The position numbers and the translations under genes were made by a program. A stretch of DNA of 54,656 nucleotides from Chloroflexota bacterium (GTDB lineage Bacteria; Chloroflexota; Dehalococcoidia; Lucifugimonadales; UBA3495). This document shows positions 11,085 to 17,888 of the stretch, piece by piece (within the stretch, counting starts at the first letter, position 1; each line of letters starts with the position of its first letter). The notes under the pieces are model-generated. The model saw only the letters and a program-made list of their open reading frames with translations, did not search any database and was not told the DNA's origin. The stretch covers positions 1 through 54,656 of the forward strand of contig JAQBVF010000024.1 of assembly GCA_027623675.1 (NCBI GenBank). Direction: 5' to 3'.

Positions 11085-11891
11085 ATGGCGCCTTCGGGGG
11101 CCTCCTCCGGTTTCCCCGGGTTTACCGGGAGCACTCTTTACACACCGGTGCCCAACCCGGTGTTTGGACCGATCTTGGAGGAGATCCAGGACCTGGCCGA
11201 ACTCAAAGTAACCCTGCGCGGCCTGTGGCTGTTTCACCGCCAACGGGGGGCGCACAAGGCCGTTTCACTGAGCGAGTTCCTGGCCGACCGGTCACTGGTT
11301 AAGGGTCTGACGTTAGAAGGCAAGGATGCAGGGGAAGAGATCCGGCGGGGGCTTCGGCTGGCCGTGACACGGGGCACGTTCTTGACCCATAAGTCCGAAG
11401 GGGCGGATTCTGTGTTTCTCCTGAACACCGACGCCGGCCGGCGGGCGGTGGCCGGTCTACAGTCGGGAGAAGTATCGGCCCCCCTTGAGTATGCTGGCAC
11501 AGCCTCCGGCGAGGCCCCGGAATCGGAACGGCCCAACATATTTGCCCTCTATGAGGACTGCATCGGGTCTCTTTCGCCGCTCTTGGCTGAGGAATTGAAA
11601 GAGGCCGAGGCCCGCTACCCCGGCTCCTGGCTCCGGGAGGCTTTCGGGATCGCAGCGGCCGAGAACAAACGCAGTTGGCGTTACGTGGCTGGAATATTGA
11701 GGCGCTGGACGGCCGAGGGCAGGGAGCGACCCAGGGACCAGGCCAGAAGCGAAGATGCCAAGCGGGGAGACGCCGGAAGGGGGGACGATGGAAAGCCTGG
11801 GCGACATTCTGAGACGGATCACGGCCAAAAATATATCGAAGACTACCAACGGCGGCGGGGTGGCCCTCCCGGACAGCGAGCCGGCCGTTGA
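11085..11891 (+). CDS. DnaD/DnaB_2-domain replication protein
   Basis: N-terminal wHTH-like region (ELKVTL); C-terminal NIFALYE...W..EAF..A...NKRSWRYVAGILRRW. Confidence 0.8.
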   Translation: MAPSGASSGFPGFTGSTLYTPVPNPVFGPILEEIQDLAELKVTLRGLWLFHRQRGAHKAVSLSEFLADRSLVKGLTLEGKDAGEEIRRGLRLAVTRGTFLTHKSEGADSVFLLNTDAGRRAVAGLQSGEVSAPLEYAGTASGEAPESERPNIFALYEDCIGSLSPLLAEELKEAEARYPGSWLREAFGIAAAENKRSWRYVAGILRRWTAEGRERPRDQARSEDAKRGDAGRGDDGKPGRHSETDHGQKYIEDYQRRRGGPPGQRAGR

Positions 11892-13170
11892 TCTGTGCCC
11901 CCAGTGCAAGGGCAGCGGCTGGGTAACCCGCCGCGTCCATATCGGCCATCCTGAATTCGGACAGGCCATTCCCTGTTCCTGCCAGGAAACCGAGGACGCC
12001 GGCGCCCGGTCCGCGGCGTTGCGGCGTTACAGCAACCTGGGCGCGCTGTCCAAGATCTCTTTCGCCACCACCGGCCTGGAAGGCACGCTGCCCGACGCCG
12101 CCAACCGGGAGATGTTCAACAAGGGCGTTGCCGCCGCCACCCGGTTCTCCGAGGACCCCCAGGGCTGGCTGGTGTTGACGGGCCCCAGCGGTTGCGGCAA
12201 GACCCACCTGGCCGTGGCCGTCGCCAACCGGTGCATCGAAAGGAACCAGACCACATTCTTCATCGTCGCCGCCGACCTGCTGGACCACCTGAGGTCCGCC
12301 TATTCGCCGGACAACCCCGTTTCATACGACGAATTATTCGAGCAGGTTCGGAACGTCCCCGTTCTGGTTCTGGACGACCTCAGCACCGCCAGCGCCACCC
12401 CCTGGGCGCAAGAAAAGCTGTTCCAGGTGATCAACCACCGCTACAACAATTCGCTGCCCACGGTGGTCACGGTGCGGGGGCCGCTGCAACGGCTAGACGA
12501 CTCCCTGCGGACTCGGCTGGAAGGCTCCGATCCCACCGCCACGGTGGTTCAGTTGGGCAATTTCAATAGCCGTCTCATCATGGGCATCGGCGAGGTCCGC
12601 CCCGAGATGCTGCAGCGGATGACTTTTGAGAATTTCGACACCCAGGGCGGGATGGGGGCCACTCCCGCTGATCAGGAGACGTTGGACCGGGCGCGGCACA
12701 CCGCCGAAACGTTCGCGGCCGATCCGGATGGCTGGCTGCTGGTCAACGGTCCACGCGGTTGCGGCAAGACCCACCTGGCGGTGGCCATCGCCGGGGAACG
12801 CCTCAAGCAGGGCGGCCAGGTTTTCTTCGCATTCGTGCCCACGCTTCTGGACCACCTGCGAGCCACGTTCAGTCCCGACAGCCTGGTGGGCTACGACGAG
12901 CTGTTCGAGCAGATAAACTCGGTGCCGCTGCTGGTGTTGGATGACCTGGGCGCCGAGAGCAGCACGGCCTGGGCCGAGGAGAAGCTCTACCAGATCATCG
13001 TTCACCGGCACGAGGCCCGTTTGCCTACGGTCATCACGACCGTATCCACCATGGACGAACTGGAAGACACCAAGTCCCGGATCGCCTCCCGCTTGGTGGA
13101 CGGCATGGTGGTTGACTGGGTGCTGATAACCGCCCCCAACTACCGCGACCAACGCCGCCGCGGCGGATAG
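11788..13170 (+). CDS. DnaC/IstB-like helicase loader with a Zn-binding region and two tandem AAA+ domains
   Basis: CPQC...CSC; two copies of G..GCGKTHLA (Walker A), LLDHLR, LVLDDL (Walker B) and W..EKL.Q.I.HR; SD before ATG 11788. Confidence 0.85.
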   Translation: MESLGDILRRITAKNISKTTNGGGVALPDSEPAVDLCPQCKGSGWVTRRVHIGHPEFGQAIPCSCQETEDAGARSAALRRYSNLGALSKISFATTGLEGTLPDAANREMFNKGVAAATRFSEDPQGWLVLTGPSGCGKTHLAVAVANRCIERNQTTFFIVAADLLDHLRSAYSPDNPVSYDELFEQVRNVPVLVLDDLSTASATPWAQEKLFQVINHRYNNSLPTVVTVRGPLQRLDDSLRTRLEGSDPTATVVQLGNFNSRLIMGIGEVRPEMLQRMTFENFDTQGGMGATPADQETLDRARHTAETFAADPDGWLLVNGPRGCGKTHLAVAIAGERLKQGGQVFFAFVPTLLDHLRATFSPDSLVGYDELFEQINSVPLLVLDDLGAESSTAWAEEKLYQIIVHRHEARLPTVITTVSTMDELEDTKSRIASRLVDGMVVDWVLITAPNYRDQRRRGG

Positions 13171-13175
13171 GCCGG

Positions 13176-13413
13176 GGCGGGTTATCCGCGAAGCAGCTTG
13201 AGCGGGAGCTTGGGGTGACTTACAAGACGGCGTGGAGAACTCATGGAGCGGACCGACGAACCGCTGGACGGTAAAGGCGAGCTTGGTGAATCCTGCTTCG
13301 CATCGACAGAGCATCTTCGTGGTTACCTGGACGGGTATGCCTGGCCGTACTACCACCGGGATGATGGTCGGGCGATGTTCGAGTTAGCTCTTGTTCGAGC
13401 GGCGAGTCGGTGA
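13176..13413 (+). pseudogene. Internally deleted IS1595-family transposase relic
   Basis: Manual translation: GGLSAKQLERELGVTYKTAWR (13176-13238), frameshift, then LMERTDEPLDGKGELGESCF / ASTEHLRGYLDGYAWPYYHRDDGRAMFELALVRAASR*. These match the IS1595 HTH, the degenerate VE.DE.Y motif and the C-terminal HL..YL.E..WR.N.R motif. Confidence 0.8.
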
Positions 13414-13520
13414 TTTCGTCTCCGCCACCTTGTCTAAGTTCGTCTCAAACTCCTCCTTGTAGGCACAGGAATCTCGTGGTCCTTCGGGGTTTTCTGCGTC
13501 TCTTGTTTCTTTTTGCTCAT
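13384..13520 (-). pseudogene. Frameshifted small ORF converging on the transposase relic
   Basis: MSKKKQETQKTPKDHEIPVPT continues as KEEFETNLDKVAETKSPTRRSNKS* after a one-base shift near 13458; unshifted it stops at 13434. Confidence 0.45.
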
Positions 13521-14307
13521 AAGAAGGGAGCCTTAGCTTATGACTAATTATATGGATACCTTTCGCCTTCGCGTCAAGCGGGCAAGGCAGAATATCACCA
13601 ATTTCGACCGTGTATCCCGGAATTTCTTTGAACCATCCCCGTACAAGGTGATTACCAAGATCAAGCCTCGTGTTAATGATGATTGGCTCGAAATCCATAT
13701 CGAAATTATCAAAGACACTCCGAGAAGCCTCGGGTTCATTTTCGCTGAATGTATTCATAACCTGCGGTCGGTGGTCGATAACGTTATTTGGCAACTCGGA
13801 CAAAAACATGGAACTCCGGACAGAATTTCCTTTCCCGTAACTGTTCATTGCAAATACTTCACCCCCTTGCTCACCGACAAGACCAACACCTTGTCTCTCT
13901 TGCCCACCAAGGCTTTGAAAGTTATCGAGGAGCTCCAGCCGTACCACCGAGGGAATCCTCAAGACCATCCGCTCTGGATTCTCAACCGACTCTGGAACGA
14001 TGACAAGCATCGCACCCCTGTGGTTGTCGCAACAATTAGCAATGACACCGTGCTGGATGTCCAGGCTGGTGGTATCGGCCAATGGTTTGGTCCCATGTCC
14101 TTGGACCATGATTTTCAACTCATGGGTGTTGCCATTCCTAAGTACGTGAAGATCGATCCTGAGTTGCACTTTACCCATGAGGTAATCTTGAAGATAAACG
14201 GGCAAGTCGCAGGGGGAACGAATGCCAGAGAACTCCTCTTGAAGTTGCACGACTTTGTCCGTGATGAAATTGTCGAAAAGTTTAAGCCATTTTTCTGAAT
14301 TAACCAT
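13384..14307 (-). CDS. Candidate antisense overlapping hypothetical protein (307 aa)
   Basis: Stop-free frame codon-aligned with 13540-14298 in lower-GC DNA; SD-like GAAGGGGA just upstream of ATG 14307. Confidence 0.4.
   Translation of the reverse strand: MVNSEKWLKLFDNFITDKVVQLQEEFSGIRSPCDLPVYLQDYLMGKVQLRIDLHVLRNGNTHELKIMVQGHGTKPLADTTSLDIQHGVIANCCDNHRGAMLVIVPESVENPERMVLRIPSVVRLELLDNFQSLGGQERQGVGLVGEQGGEVFAMNSYGKGNSVRSSMFLSELPNNVIDHRPQVMNTFSENEPEASRSVFDNFDMDFEPIIINTRLDLGNHLVRGWFKEIPGYTVEIGDILPCPLDAKAKGIHIISHKLRLPSYEQKETRDAENPEGPRDSCAYKEEFETNLDKVAETKSPTRRSNKS
13540..14298 (+). CDS. Hypothetical cargo protein with HEPN-like motif
   Basis: 252 aa, lower GC than flanks, SD GAAGGGAG; ECIHNLRSVVDN, IEELQPY and LNRLWNDDKHR (Rx6H) motifs. 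Confidence 0.7.
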   Translation: MTNYMDTFRLRVKRARQNITNFDRVSRNFFEPSPYKVITKIKPRVNDDWLEIHIEIIKDTPRSLGFIFAECIHNLRSVVDNVIWQLGQKHGTPDRISFPVTVHCKYFTPLLTDKTNTLSLLPTKALKVIEELQPYHRGNPQDHPLWILNRLWNDDKHRTPVVVATISNDTVLDVQAGGIGQWFGPMSLDHDFQLMGVAIPKYVKIDPELHFTHEVILKINGQVAGGTNARELLLKLHDFVRDEIVEKFKPFF

Positions 14308-14411
14308 TAGTCCCCTTCGTAGGAGTGAGCGACTTATACAGTGAAGTCCTACTCACCTTTACGAAAGGAGAAGATTAAGTCCCCTTTCATAATGCGCCAG
14401 GGGATTTTCAC

Positions 14412-14458
14412 TTGACATCCGCCAAAGCAATGCTATATTTAACTACATGGTTAAATAT
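14412..14458 (+). promoter_or_regulatory. Promoter with overlapping palindromic operator of the ArsR operon
   Basis: TTGACA 14412-14417, TGcTATATT -10 at 14434-14439; perfect inverted repeat ATATTTAAC-N6-GTTAAATAT at 14435-14458 covering the ATG. Confidence 0.8.
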
Positions 14459-14836
14459 CAATCGCGAACGCTGAATTCCACCTTCGCGGCGCTGGCGGAC
14501 CCCACCCGCCGGGCCATATTGGAACGTCTTTCCACCGGCGACTCCTCGGTGTCGGCATTGGCTGAGCCGTTCGACGTTTCACTGCCGGCGATCTCCAAGC
14601 AACTCCGGGTGTTGGAGCGGGCCGGGTTGCTGGTGCAGGAGAAAGACGGCCGGGTGCGCCGCTGCAGATTGGACGCGCAGCCCATGAAGGAAGCGGTTGA
14701 TTGGATAGCCCAGTACCGGCGGTTCTGGGAGGACCAACTGGAATCGCTGGCCGGCTATCTGGAAGACCTGGACCCCGATGATGACGATGTGAGCGAAGAC
14801 CAAAAGCCTGTAGATTCGGAGGGAAGAGACCAATGA
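14447..14836 (+). CDS. ArsR/SmtB family transcriptional regulator
   Basis: FAALADPTRRAIL, SLPAISKQLRVLERAGL, GRVRRC. Confidence 0.92.
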   Translation: MVKYQSRTLNSTFAALADPTRRAILERLSTGDSSVSALAEPFDVSLPAISKQLRVLERAGLLVQEKDGRVRRCRLDAQPMKEAVDWIAQYRRFWEDQLESLAGYLEDLDPDDDDVSEDQKPVDSEGRDQ

Positions 14837-15655: not shown

Positions 15656-16693
15656 CTAGAGGGGCAGCGCCACCGTCTGGCCGGACTGGGCGCTGCGGGT
15701 CACGGCTTCGGTGAACTCCATGTAGTGGAGGCCTACCTCGAAGGGGGTGCGGGTGATCTTTTCGAGGCCCCTGATACCGTTGCAGAATTCCTCTTCCACC
15801 CGCCACACGGCCCGGCCTTCCTCAGGATTGGGAATCTCGGCCAGTTTCTCGTCGCCACGGCGACCGCCGTAGACGTTCTGGGCGCCGTCCACGTGGATGG
15901 TGCCCTCGCTGCCGTAGATCCAGACGCCGTTGCCCGATGACAGGCCGGTGACGGCGCTGAATTGCATGTTGGCGTGGGCGCCGCTGGCCAACTCGGCGAT
16001 GATGTTCACGTGGTCGGGGATGCTGACATCGACCATCAATCCGTCCTCGTCCTTGCGGCGGGAGACGTTGATCTTGGTCATGGACGTGACTTTTGTGGCC
16101 CGGCCCACCCAGCGGATCATGGCCTCGTACCAGATGCCCATGTTCAAGATGTTGTAGCCGCTGAGGTCGCGGTCGTTGCGCCAGTGCATGGGGCCGCCCT
16201 GGTCCTGGAAGTTGTTGCCCAAAGACTGGACCGATACGCCGATGACGTCGCCGACAAAGCCCTCGGCGATCTTGGCTTGCAAGAGGCGGTCGATCTTGAA
16301 GGTGAGGGGCGAGGGCACGATCTGGGTTGTCAGGTCGGGCCGTAACCGGGAGGCGTCTAGCATCTCCTGGGCTTCCTGGGCGCTGGTGGCCATGCGTGCC
16401 TCGCAGAGCACGTGCTTCCCGGCATCCAAGGCGGCCAGGGTCAGGGTGCGGTGCATGTAGGGCCAGGTGCCGATGCAGACGGCGTCGATGCTGGGGTCTT
16501 CCAGCAAGTCCTGCCAGTTGTCATAGACGTTGGGGATGTTGAACTGGTCGGCCACCACCTGTCCCGATTGGCGGCTGCGGTTGGCCACGGCGGCGATCTC
16601 CAGGCCGTCCACTTTCTGGAAGCCGGGTATGTGCCGGTCCCGGGTGTTGCGTCCCGCGCCGATGAGGCCGAGCCTGATTCCTTCTGAAGCCAT
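15656..16693 (-). CDS. Gfo/Idh/MocA family oxidoreductase
   Basis: GLIGAG Rossmann motif, IDAVCIGTWPYMH, GKHVLCEARMA; SD GGAGG before ATG 16693. Confidence 0.9.
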   Translation of the reverse strand: MASEGIRLGLIGAGRNTRDRHIPGFQKVDGLEIAAVANRSRQSGQVVADQFNIPNVYDNWQDLLEDPSIDAVCIGTWPYMHRTLTLAALDAGKHVLCEARMATSAQEAQEMLDASRLRPDLTTQIVPSPLTFKIDRLLQAKIAEGFVGDVIGVSVQSLGNNFQDQGGPMHWRNDRDLSGYNILNMGIWYEAMIRWVGRATKVTSMTKINVSRRKDEDGLMVDVSIPDHVNIIAELASGAHANMQFSAVTGLSSGNGVWIYGSEGTIHVDGAQNVYGGRRGDEKLAEIPNPEEGRAVWRVEEEFCNGIRGLEKITRTPFEVGLHYMEFTEAVTRSAQSGQTVALPL

Positions 16694-16820
16694 GGCGCCC
16701 TCCAATCTCGTCTGGAAATCATTGATGTGGGTTTCGGGTTAAGCCGGAGGGCAAAGGTCCCAAGCCAAATGTGCCCTCCGTTGTGCCGGAAAAGAGTTGT
16801 CGCGACCGTTTTGCAACCGT

Positions 16821-17888
16821 CTATAGGGGCAGGTGGACCACTTGCCCGGTCTGGGCGCTGCGGGTGACGGCCTCAGTGAACTCCATGTATTGCACCCCCA
16901 CATCGAACGGCGTGTGAGTCACGGCCGCATTGCCCCGGATGGCGTCGATGAAGTCCTGCTCCACCCGCCATTTGCCGCGCTTGTCGTCGGCTATGGGGTG
17001 CTCCTTCAACTGTTCATCGCCGGGCTTTCCGACCAGCACCTTGTCGAAGGGCGGGCCTTCCAACTTGATGGTGCCCTCGCTGCCGAATAGCCACATCTCC
17101 GAGCCGGTCTGCAGGCCCGTGACGGTGCTCCAGCTAAGGTCGCCCTGGACGCCAGACGCGAACTCGCACAGCACGTTGACGTGGTCCGGGACCGACACCC
17201 CGCGCAGGATCCCGTTTTCGTCCTTGCGCTTGTTGGTGAAGACCTTGGTCATGGCCACCACCTTGGTCGCGGGGCCAACGTAGCGCATCAGCGCCTCGTA
17301 CCAGATGCCCATGCCCATGATGTTGTAGCCGCTGAGCTGCCGGTCCTGACGCCAGTGCAGGGGGCCGTCGGTGTTCATGAACGTGTCGGCGCGGTTGGTC
17401 CGGCCGTGGTAGTCGCAGACCCGTAACCGCAACGCAAGCGGCTCGCCCAGGAATCCGTCGGCGATCAGCTCCTGCACGGTCCGGTCGACCTGCAGCGTCT
17501 GGGGCGCGGGGACGATCTGGGTCACCAGGTGCGGGAACTGCCGGGAGGCGTCCAGCATCTCGTGGGCTTCCTGGGCGTCCATGGCCATGCGGGCTTCCGT
17601 TAGGACGTGTTTGTCATTCTCCAGGGCGGACAGCACCAGGGTGCGGTGCATGTAGGGCCAGGTGCCAATGCAGATGGCGTCGATGTCGTCGGCCTCCATC
17701 AGCTCCAGCCAGTTATCGTACACGGTGGGAATCTCGTACTCGCTGGCGATGGCTTCGCCGGACGCGCGGCTGCGGTTGGCCACGGCGACAATCTCAACGC
17801 CTTCTTGTTCGCGAAGGCCGGGGATGTGCCGCAGGCGGGTGTTGGCGCCGGCGCCGATCAGCCCAACGCGGATGATTCCATTCTCCAT
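16821..17888 (-). CDS. Gfo/Idh/MocA family oxidoreductase (tandem paralog)
   Basis: Same motifs (GLIGAG, GTWPYMH, KHVLTEARMA) and a near-identical C-terminus. Confidence 0.9.
   Translation of the reverse strand: MENGIIRVGLIGAGANTRLRHIPGLREQEGVEIVAVANRSRASGEAIASEYEIPTVYDNWLELMEADDIDAICIGTWPYMHRTLVLSALENDKHVLTEARMAMDAQEAHEMLDASRQFPHLVTQIVPAPQTLQVDRTVQELIADGFLGEPLALRLRVCDYHGRTNRADTFMNTDGPLHWRQDRQLSGYNIMGMGIWYEALMRYVGPATKVVAMTKVFTNKRKDENGILRGVSVPDHVNVLCEFASGVQGDLSWSTVTGLQTGSEMWLFGSEGTIKLEGPPFDKVLVGKPGDEQLKEHPIADDKRGKWRVEQDFIDAIRGNAAVTHTPFDVGVQYMEFTEAVTRSAQTGQVVHLPL

Follow-up and report, generated by a model that had tools for sequence, protein, structure and literature searches.

A nested gene pair in a decayed IS1595 element

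The window, by which we mean the whole 54,656-nucleotide stretch of DNA analysed, contains a 252-residue plus-strand gene nested in a 307-residue minus-strand open reading frame (ORF) (Table 1). A sequence-only reading had placed the two in exact codon register. Its coordinates and frames were confirmed, together with the absence of TTA, CTA and TCA from the 24 Leu and 8 Ser codons of the sense gene, in which A- and T-ending codons are plentiful (35 and 73, respectively). Both ORFs also have the Shine–Dalgarno-like motifs ascribed to them, GGGAG 9 nt upstream of the sense ATG and, at a short spacing of 4 nt from the antisense ATG, AAGGGG; this antisense ATG, as had been seen, lies just past the sense stop. 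The length of 307 residues is partly accidental: the last ~25 residues belong to a frameshifted small gene, and the conserved antisense gene, as judged from sequence, spans about residues 1-256. A search upstream of the antisense ATG found no minus-strand promoter, and no second copy of the cargo gene was found in the same genome.

Table 1. Features of the overlap and its surroundings (window positions unless a locus is named)
Feature	Position	Strand	Remarks
Double AAA+ DnaC/IstB-like ATPase	11755..13170	+	Flank outside the element; chromosomal dnaB cluster
IS1595 transposase remnant	13173..13413	+	HTH piece, then frameshifted, internally deleted C-terminal piece; left end of element lost
Small 47-aa-type gene	13384..13520	-	Frameshifted; 1-nt and 6-nt deletions against L016
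Antisense ORF, variable tail	13384..13539	-	Last ~25 codons are the C-terminal half of the small gene via frameshift
Shine–Dalgarno-like AAGGGAG	13524..13530	+	Ahead of sense ATG
Sense cargo gene	13540..14298	+	252 aa; family without a name
Antisense gene, conserved part	13540..14307	-	Residues 1-256; codon register with sense gene
Antisense ORF, full	14307-13384	-	307 aa; ATG at 14307-14305
Shine–Dalgarno-like AAGGGG	14308..14317	-	4 nt ahead of antisense ATG
Right terminal inverted repeat, degenerate	14333..14357	.	Compared with ends of intact L016-L019, L134 and others
ArsR-type regulator	14447..14836	+	Flank outside the element; own sigma70-like promoter at 14412-14439
IS1595 transposase genes with long in-register reverse ORF	L017:2382-3332, L018:2701-3627, L019:437-1333, L020, L022-L025		

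The gene had been read as insertion-sequence cargo, and it is indeed the passenger of a decayed IS1595 remnant. The HTH piece of the window transposase reaches E 1.8e-4 against NF033547, which is below the cut-off, and the remnant also matches intact relatives at the DNA level; the transposases of intact relatives pass NF033547 with 226 and 218 bits (cut-off 75; E 5e-67 and 1e-64). Both terminal inverted repeats are present in the intact relatives, and the window copy keeps only the degenerate right end. Four fuller copies in related genomes (L016-L019) have an identical layout, with cargo 20-24% identical to that of the window and a reverse frame that is open in all four. The insertion is absent from 8 of 14 relative loci, in which the ATPase and arsR genes lie 110-266 bp apart. 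An IS21 (IstA/IstB) identity of the element was rejected, as the ATPase scores 138 against an IstB cut-off of 200, follows dnaB and remains at the empty site in relatives. This tandem double AAA+ protein (11755-13170), encoded after dnaB and a DnaD-like gene, is easily mislabelled as an IS21 IstB.

Hairpin repeats built of C-runs and G-runs occur at 14355-14412 of the window and in the dnaC-arsR gap of relatives L004, L005, L008-L010 and L012. The same hairpins adjoin the element ends in L016, L018 and L019, and they are possibly a preferred insertion target. In L134, L140 and L176, a TTGACT hexamer that points inward is present in both inverted repeats, and the right repeat, or the sequence just inside it, often holds the antisense start. 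Farther along the window (15656-17888, minus strand) are two tandem, similar oxidoreductase-like paralogs of 349 and 355 aa.

The small minus-strand gene lies between transposase and cargo, overlaps the transposase end in antisense register and encodes a conserved, basic protein of ~47 aa. Of its 19 occurrences outside this genome, 16 are next to a member of this cargo family, and the small gene is itself a candidate antitoxin or regulator. An intact homolog is present at L016:1904-2044, and a 1-nt deletion relative to L016 has turned the C-terminal half of the window copy into the tail of the antisense ORF. In L014 (G019:C92), another member of the genus, a degenerate remnant of the small gene can be seen by eye right after the ATPase stop; the profile gave it no score.

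Reverse frames across the family and its neighbours

Taken alone, the window gene is not beyond chance. Its GC content is 47% and its GC3 0.57, compared with a GC3 of 0.78-0.85 for seven other window genes; the chance that such a gene has an open reverse frame is P=0.099 under host codon usage and 0.04 and 0.08 under two other nulls, and the frame is also open in 25 of 318 host ORFs of 230-280 aa taken from self-trained gene calls. The overlap is therefore established only through homologs.

We extracted 150 distinct genes, dropped 17 and kept 133 of full length (at least 220 codons, with a stop), which dereplication at 60% identity reduced to 109. A gene was called open if TTA, CTA and TCA were all absent beyond codon 15; we adopted this rule once antisense stops had been seen to cluster at the sense N terminus. 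This gave 63 open genes, 33 closed genes (at least two internal antisense stops) and 13 genes with one internal stop that are in neither group. The IS1595-borne class (n=42, window copy included) comprises genes that neighbour an IS1595 transposase or the small gene. Two loci are from unpublished genomes: L131 (G284), which counts among the 109 genes but falls outside both groups, and L195 (G683), which is among the 40 loci compared below for frame integrity. No conclusion rests on either.

The reverse frame is open in 38 of the 42 IS1595-borne genes (<60% identical), for an expectation of 2.7, compared with 13 of 38 genes with neither neighbour and 12 of 29 on short contigs; the Fisher p=1.4e-7 is overstated by kinship. 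Frequent antisense stops in homologs, which the sequence-only reading had named as evidence against itself, are thus not what IS-borne copies have. Openness is found both with a transposase upstream of the cargo in the same orientation and with one downstream in the opposite orientation. It extends to standalone copies and to a copy beside an IS6-like transposase (L158:2265-3173; best match IS6, just under the cut-off), and L030 and L177 have, by eye, an IS6-like neighbour too. Cargo beside IS6-like transposases suggests that the cassette has passed from one IS family to another. Homologs with named records come from, among others, Chloroflexota, Actinomycetota, Acidobacteriota, Dormiibacterota, Pseudomonadota and Bacteroidota; among loci on viral contigs, 4 of 15 are open. 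A phage collection yielded no match, and plasmids yielded three weak ones. One locus, L193 (G676:C140:9008-10640), has two diverged dual-coding genes in tandem, both with open reverse frames.

A quick tree, from which we draw no order of gains or losses, places open genes in many deep lineages; the open label needs 16 changes, 7 of them forced by strong branches. A chance shadow ORF arising from GC-rich codon usage would suit the single-gene P of 0.04-0.10 and the many shadow ORFs in the window. At the family level it is already refuted by the 38 of 42 open frames, by open copies with a GC3 of 0.47-0.53 and by the many deep lineages, so that it could hold only for this decayed copy; we regard it as scarcely credible. 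The high-GC3 explanation, which the sequence-only reading had already judged weaker here than for other shadow ORFs of the window, was rejected.

Codon usage in the 42 IS-borne genes has the same pattern: CTA accounts for 0.001 of 800 CTN codons, TCA for 0.010 of 289 TCN and TTA for 0.01 of 184 TTR, whereas other A-ending codons stand at 0.14-0.23. Out-of-frame copies of these triplets are not depleted (617 versus 632, and 319 versus 297); the purge is in frame only, and general motif avoidance was rejected. An ATG at most 15 codons past the sense stop is found in 34 of 63 open versus 6 of 33 closed genes, and a start with a 4-nt Shine–Dalgarno match, a lax criterion, in 36 of 63 versus 8 of 33. 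The position of the antisense stop is variable among homologs. In none of 40 loci, some of which duplicate earlier ones, does an intact antisense frame lie over a broken sense frame; the converse is common.

The neighbouring transposase behaves in a related way. Among elements with the order transposase, small gene and cargo, 19 of 20 have its reverse frame open, for an expectation of 5.6, as do 4 of 4 related elements with other cargo; in other arrangements the count is 0 of 10. Transposases that are convergent with the cargo or otherwise arranged retain 1-6 TTA, CTA or TCA codons. Given open reverse frames through cargo, small gene and transposase, the minus strand of the small-gene arrangement is a chain of open frames. 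We infer that this strand is a translated antisense transcript, by analogy with the translated reverse-frame RNA proposed for ambigrammatic narnaviruses (PMC8316113, PMC8155312). The reverse frame of the transposase shows no amino-acid constraint; its purpose there is probably continuous translation of the antisense transcript, not a third protein. Several copies have the antisense start and its Shine–Dalgarno motif inside the right inverted repeat, a position that predicts transcription from the flank or from a circle junction.

These observations bear on two further explanations. In the first, the effector cuts tRNAs with UAA, UAG or UGA anticodons, the genes of the element shun TTA, CTA and TCA, and the reverse ORF arises as a side effect. 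In its favour, the purge takes in precisely these three codons and acts in frame only, and RNases are common among HEPN domains (PMC3710099), to which the sense protein may belong. Such avoidance leaves unexplained both the ATG enrichment past the sense stop and the antisense residues, described below, that are conserved where the sense codon is for Val, Ile, Ala, Thr or Arg. The window small gene uses TTA and TCA, the ten transposases in convergent or other arrangements carry such codons as well, and closed homologs retain the DKH motif of the family; we consider this explanation highly improbable. In the second, what matters is ribosome coverage of a long antisense RNA, either as protection from Rho or as a means of stronger transcriptional interference with cargo and transposase, and the apparent residue conservation comes from RNA structure or shared ancestry. 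The open yet unconstrained transposase frame indicates that translation-type selection does act in these elements, and the variable antisense stop fits as well. Whether it accounts for the cargo turns on the constraint on antisense residues.

Amino-acid selection on the antisense frame

The dual-frame selection test proposed with the sequence-only reading returned amino-acid constraint on the antisense frame, both in substitution ratios and in conserved columns. We applied a double-synonym test to disjoint pairs, using transitions only (9 open, 5 closed and 7 transposase pairs); the closest homologs, P0002 and P0003 (74% and 64%), are outside these pairs. In the open pairs, pSN is 295/1336 versus a pSS of 44/117 (pSN/pSS 0.59, p=3.5e-4) and pNN/pNS is 0.40. 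The closed pairs, which have less power, give ratios of 0.86 and 0.70, neither significant, and the transposase pairs give 1.13 and 1.01. Constraint on the antisense frame is weaker than that on the sense frame (0.59 versus 0.22). Divergence at fourfold sites is 0.34 in 17 open pairs versus 0.57 in 34 closed pairs, with sense identities of 0.69 versus 0.68 and pairs that overlap. The reduction falls on Lys (0.11 versus 0.38), Glu, Ala and Pro codons and spares Gln codons, in which the swap is silent on both strands (0.32 versus 0.35).

Individual columns point in the same direction. At sense position 215, GTA or ATA gives an antisense Tyr in 51 of 63 open genes, and at position 137 an antisense Ser is present in 36 of 63, via both TCN and AGY; further antisense columns among the 63 hold Cys (33 genes), His (38 and 31) and Gly (32). 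The antisense residue in several such columns persists across changes of the sense residue (V/I with Tyr, V/M with His and A/T with Cys). When synonymous codons are permuted within genes, the 63 open genes reach z=27 and 19 of their columns exceed z 5, compared with z=6 and one column for the 33 closed genes; after the open genes are subsampled to 33, z=15-22. The excess remains in pairs <30% identical (0.171 versus 0.151, against 0.135 versus 0.129).

The computation shows amino-acid selection on both frames in the family as a whole. Together with the open frames, the antisense constraint supports, at the family level, the earlier proposal that one segment encodes two proteins, and we regard dual coding in the family as very probable. 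Function in the decayed window copy seems likely, with less assurance. Its antisense frame carries the family-conserved Pro36, Tyr42, Gly45, Ser120, Arg123, Leu124, Arg214 and Pro243 and is without the family HxH and Cys residues. Antisense identity to the nearest locus, L028, is 0.29 versus 0.22 expected (z 3.5), and the overall signal is modest (mean z 0.94 over 62 open genes).

Translation of the antisense RNA for its own sake is, on these results, an improbable account of the cargo. The cargo, unlike the transposase, departs from neutral expectation in the double-synonym test, and its conserved antisense residues survive wobble changes by which the sense residue is replaced.

Predicted proteins, possible roles and known systems

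The sense protein has no family in Pfam, NCBIfam or PDB sequences, and the ESM Atlas gave only nameless clusters. PADLOC 2.0 weakly matched 1 of 59 members to PDC-S47 (E 0.005) and did not match the window protein. Family motifs are HNLRS..D, FP, LQPY and DKH. The structural model (pLDDT 90.8) is a four-helix bundle with beta insertions, in which DKH ends helix 3. Foldseek returned nothing at E<=0.001 for this model; the best structural match was the HEPN toxin 5yep (Z 9.0, rmsd 3.9, 127 aligned). Other HEPN entries (8xdj, 4nqf and 2hsb, Z 8.0-8.8) tie with unrelated bundles such as vinculin (Z 8.8) and catenin, so that a HEPN-like fold is a lead only.

A likeness to HEPN RNase toxins (HepT/SO_3166 and relatives) is suggested by the predicted four-helix bundle, inserts between helices 2 and 3, a His ending helix 3 and a conserved Arg/Asp in helix 2. 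Unlike these toxins, the family has N-x-D-K-H-R instead of the conserved R-x4-6-H, a large beta insertion that follows the His, no MNT antitoxin seen next to it and no Pfam match. His157 is present in 96 of 96 homologs (63 open and 33 closed). The window copy has R150-x6-H157, and that Arg is found in 19 of 63 open and 5 of 33 closed genes (24 of 96); the conserved Lys156 and Arg158 could substitute for the motif Arg. HEPN families with altered motifs and with inserts at corresponding positions are among those described in PMC3710099.

The antisense protein had no convincing match in Pfam (two single weak hits among 73 members), NCBIfam, PDB sequences or the ESM Atlas, and Rfam gave no match. 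Of its 37 database hits, the 33 that were aligned look like reverse frames of the same family and so are not independent evidence. Sense and antisense profiles are unrelated to each other. An AlphaFold model of residues 1-256 from 73 sequences has a pLDDT of 70, with 85 of 256 residues at >=90. This pLDDT could be inflated by covariation of the sense protein, which is carried over into any alignment of its reverse frames. A confident beta-rich core is predicted at about residues 7-70, 116-127 and 205-243, with low confidence at 81-93 and 134-169. The structure had no convincing match in Foldseek or in VIA-align (best Z 4.3), which does not in itself establish a new fold. Prediction of the sense–antisense complex scored 0.00 and counts neither for nor against an interaction.

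We favour, at about an even chance, an effector with a modulating partner. The plus strand would encode a HEPN-like protein, predicted to be most likely an RNase effector that acts in phage defence or element addiction. From a start of its own just past the sense stop, and in register with the sense codons, the minus strand would encode a beta-rich accessory protein of ~255 aa, unrelated to the first, that may restrain or gate the effector while the pair is mobile. The overlap would make the two a self-contained, inseparable cassette, apparently picked up by two IS1595 arrangements and by IS6-like elements; once it is immobilised, the accessory frame would often decay and the effector stay. 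Convergent transcription would add mutual repression of both messages. An accessory role fits the antisense frame never being intact over a broken sense frame in the 40 loci, the frequency of the converse and the retention of His157 in closed copies.

A toxin–antitoxin reading, one of those first offered for the pair, is plausible. Loss of the antisense frame recurs among standalone copies. The 33 closed genes among the 109 keep DKH, and inspection of ORFs flanking these diverged homologs found no common neighbour. With His157 kept in 33 of 33 and no obvious common partner gene, the antisense product does not appear to be an obligatory antitoxin. The persistence of the sense gene without the antisense protein would also suit two independent proteins in one segment, the antisense one serving the element or the host, for example as a metal-binding enzyme or a transposition accessory, and not the HEPN-like protein. 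An HxH...C...C set conserved in many antisense proteins suggests a metal site, and the antisense proteins Ins5B/C of IS5 are reported to stimulate transposition (PMC11677980). The putative ligands are absent from the window copy, however; 13 of the 38 copies that lack a nearby IS1595 still have the antisense frame open, and the antisense protein never occurs without an intact sense frame in the 40 loci. We think this reading unlikely, though of some weight. Returning to the effector and its partner, we tentatively propose, as a possibility a little short of even, an old multi-phylum system whose HEPN-like nuclease and controlling partner, a protein of novel structure, occupy opposite strands of the same ~250 codons as one inseparable cassette, with the whole element readable on both strands in one IS1595 lineage.

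The existence of long prokaryotic antisense overlapping genes is disputed, and selection on both strands has rarely been shown in bacteria. A survey of 929 genomes reports that long antiparallel ORFs are mostly without effect on selection on their genes (10.1101/724807). We found no description of the present family in a search of mainly open-access literature; the list of 2,898 stop-avoiding ORFs in 10.1101/724807 or the family alignments of PMC3710099 may include it. From sequence comparison, it appears to be a widespread, mobile, fully overlapping antisense gene pair with both predicted proteins under selection. The family has a built-in control in the open and closed copies of the same gene and in the open, unconstrained transposase frame that adjoins them. 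It also offers a natural test of how two folds can share one sequence and of gene birth by overprinting. Annotation has a blind spot here: in the protein databases searched, each strand has its own entry as a nameless protein. Should the sense protein prove to be a defence nuclease, the partner hidden opposite it would represent a new type of regulator.

The reverse ORF of ambigrammatic narnaviruses, which lies over the RdRp gene, is codon-aligned and avoids the same three codons. It is near full length, stop-free and under selection (PMC8316113). Narnaviruses differ in being RNA viruses of eukaryotes, and double-synonym analysis indicates that their reverse ORF does not encode a functional protein (PMC8155312). 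The cargo passes the type of test that the narnavirus ORF fails, and the IS1595 transposase resembles the narnavirus case. Long antisense ORFs of Pseudomonas aeruginosa are likewise bacterial and are reported to be translated and under purifying selection; they are described as evolutionarily novel, lie inside annotated genes and have expression evidence (PMC8850804). The pair described here, known from sequence alone, differs from them in being nearly coextensive, mobile and present in several phyla. With IS1595 elements that carry passengers, the present elements share the transposase, the terminal inverted repeats (of which the window copy keeps a degenerate right one) and a passenger gene; the window copy differs in its decay, the passenger differs in being dual-coding, and one arrangement of the family has nearly the whole minus strand as a chain of open frames. 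By analogy, the nearest bacterial precedent is ins5A/ins5CB of IS5 in E. coli, an insertion sequence with genes that overlap on the opposite strand (PMC11677980). In IS5, two small proteins lie opposite the transposase (PMC11677980), whereas here a predicted protein of ~255 aa lies opposite a whole passenger gene, its antisense residues are conserved down to 20-30% identity and the reverse frame of the transposase shows no amino-acid constraint.
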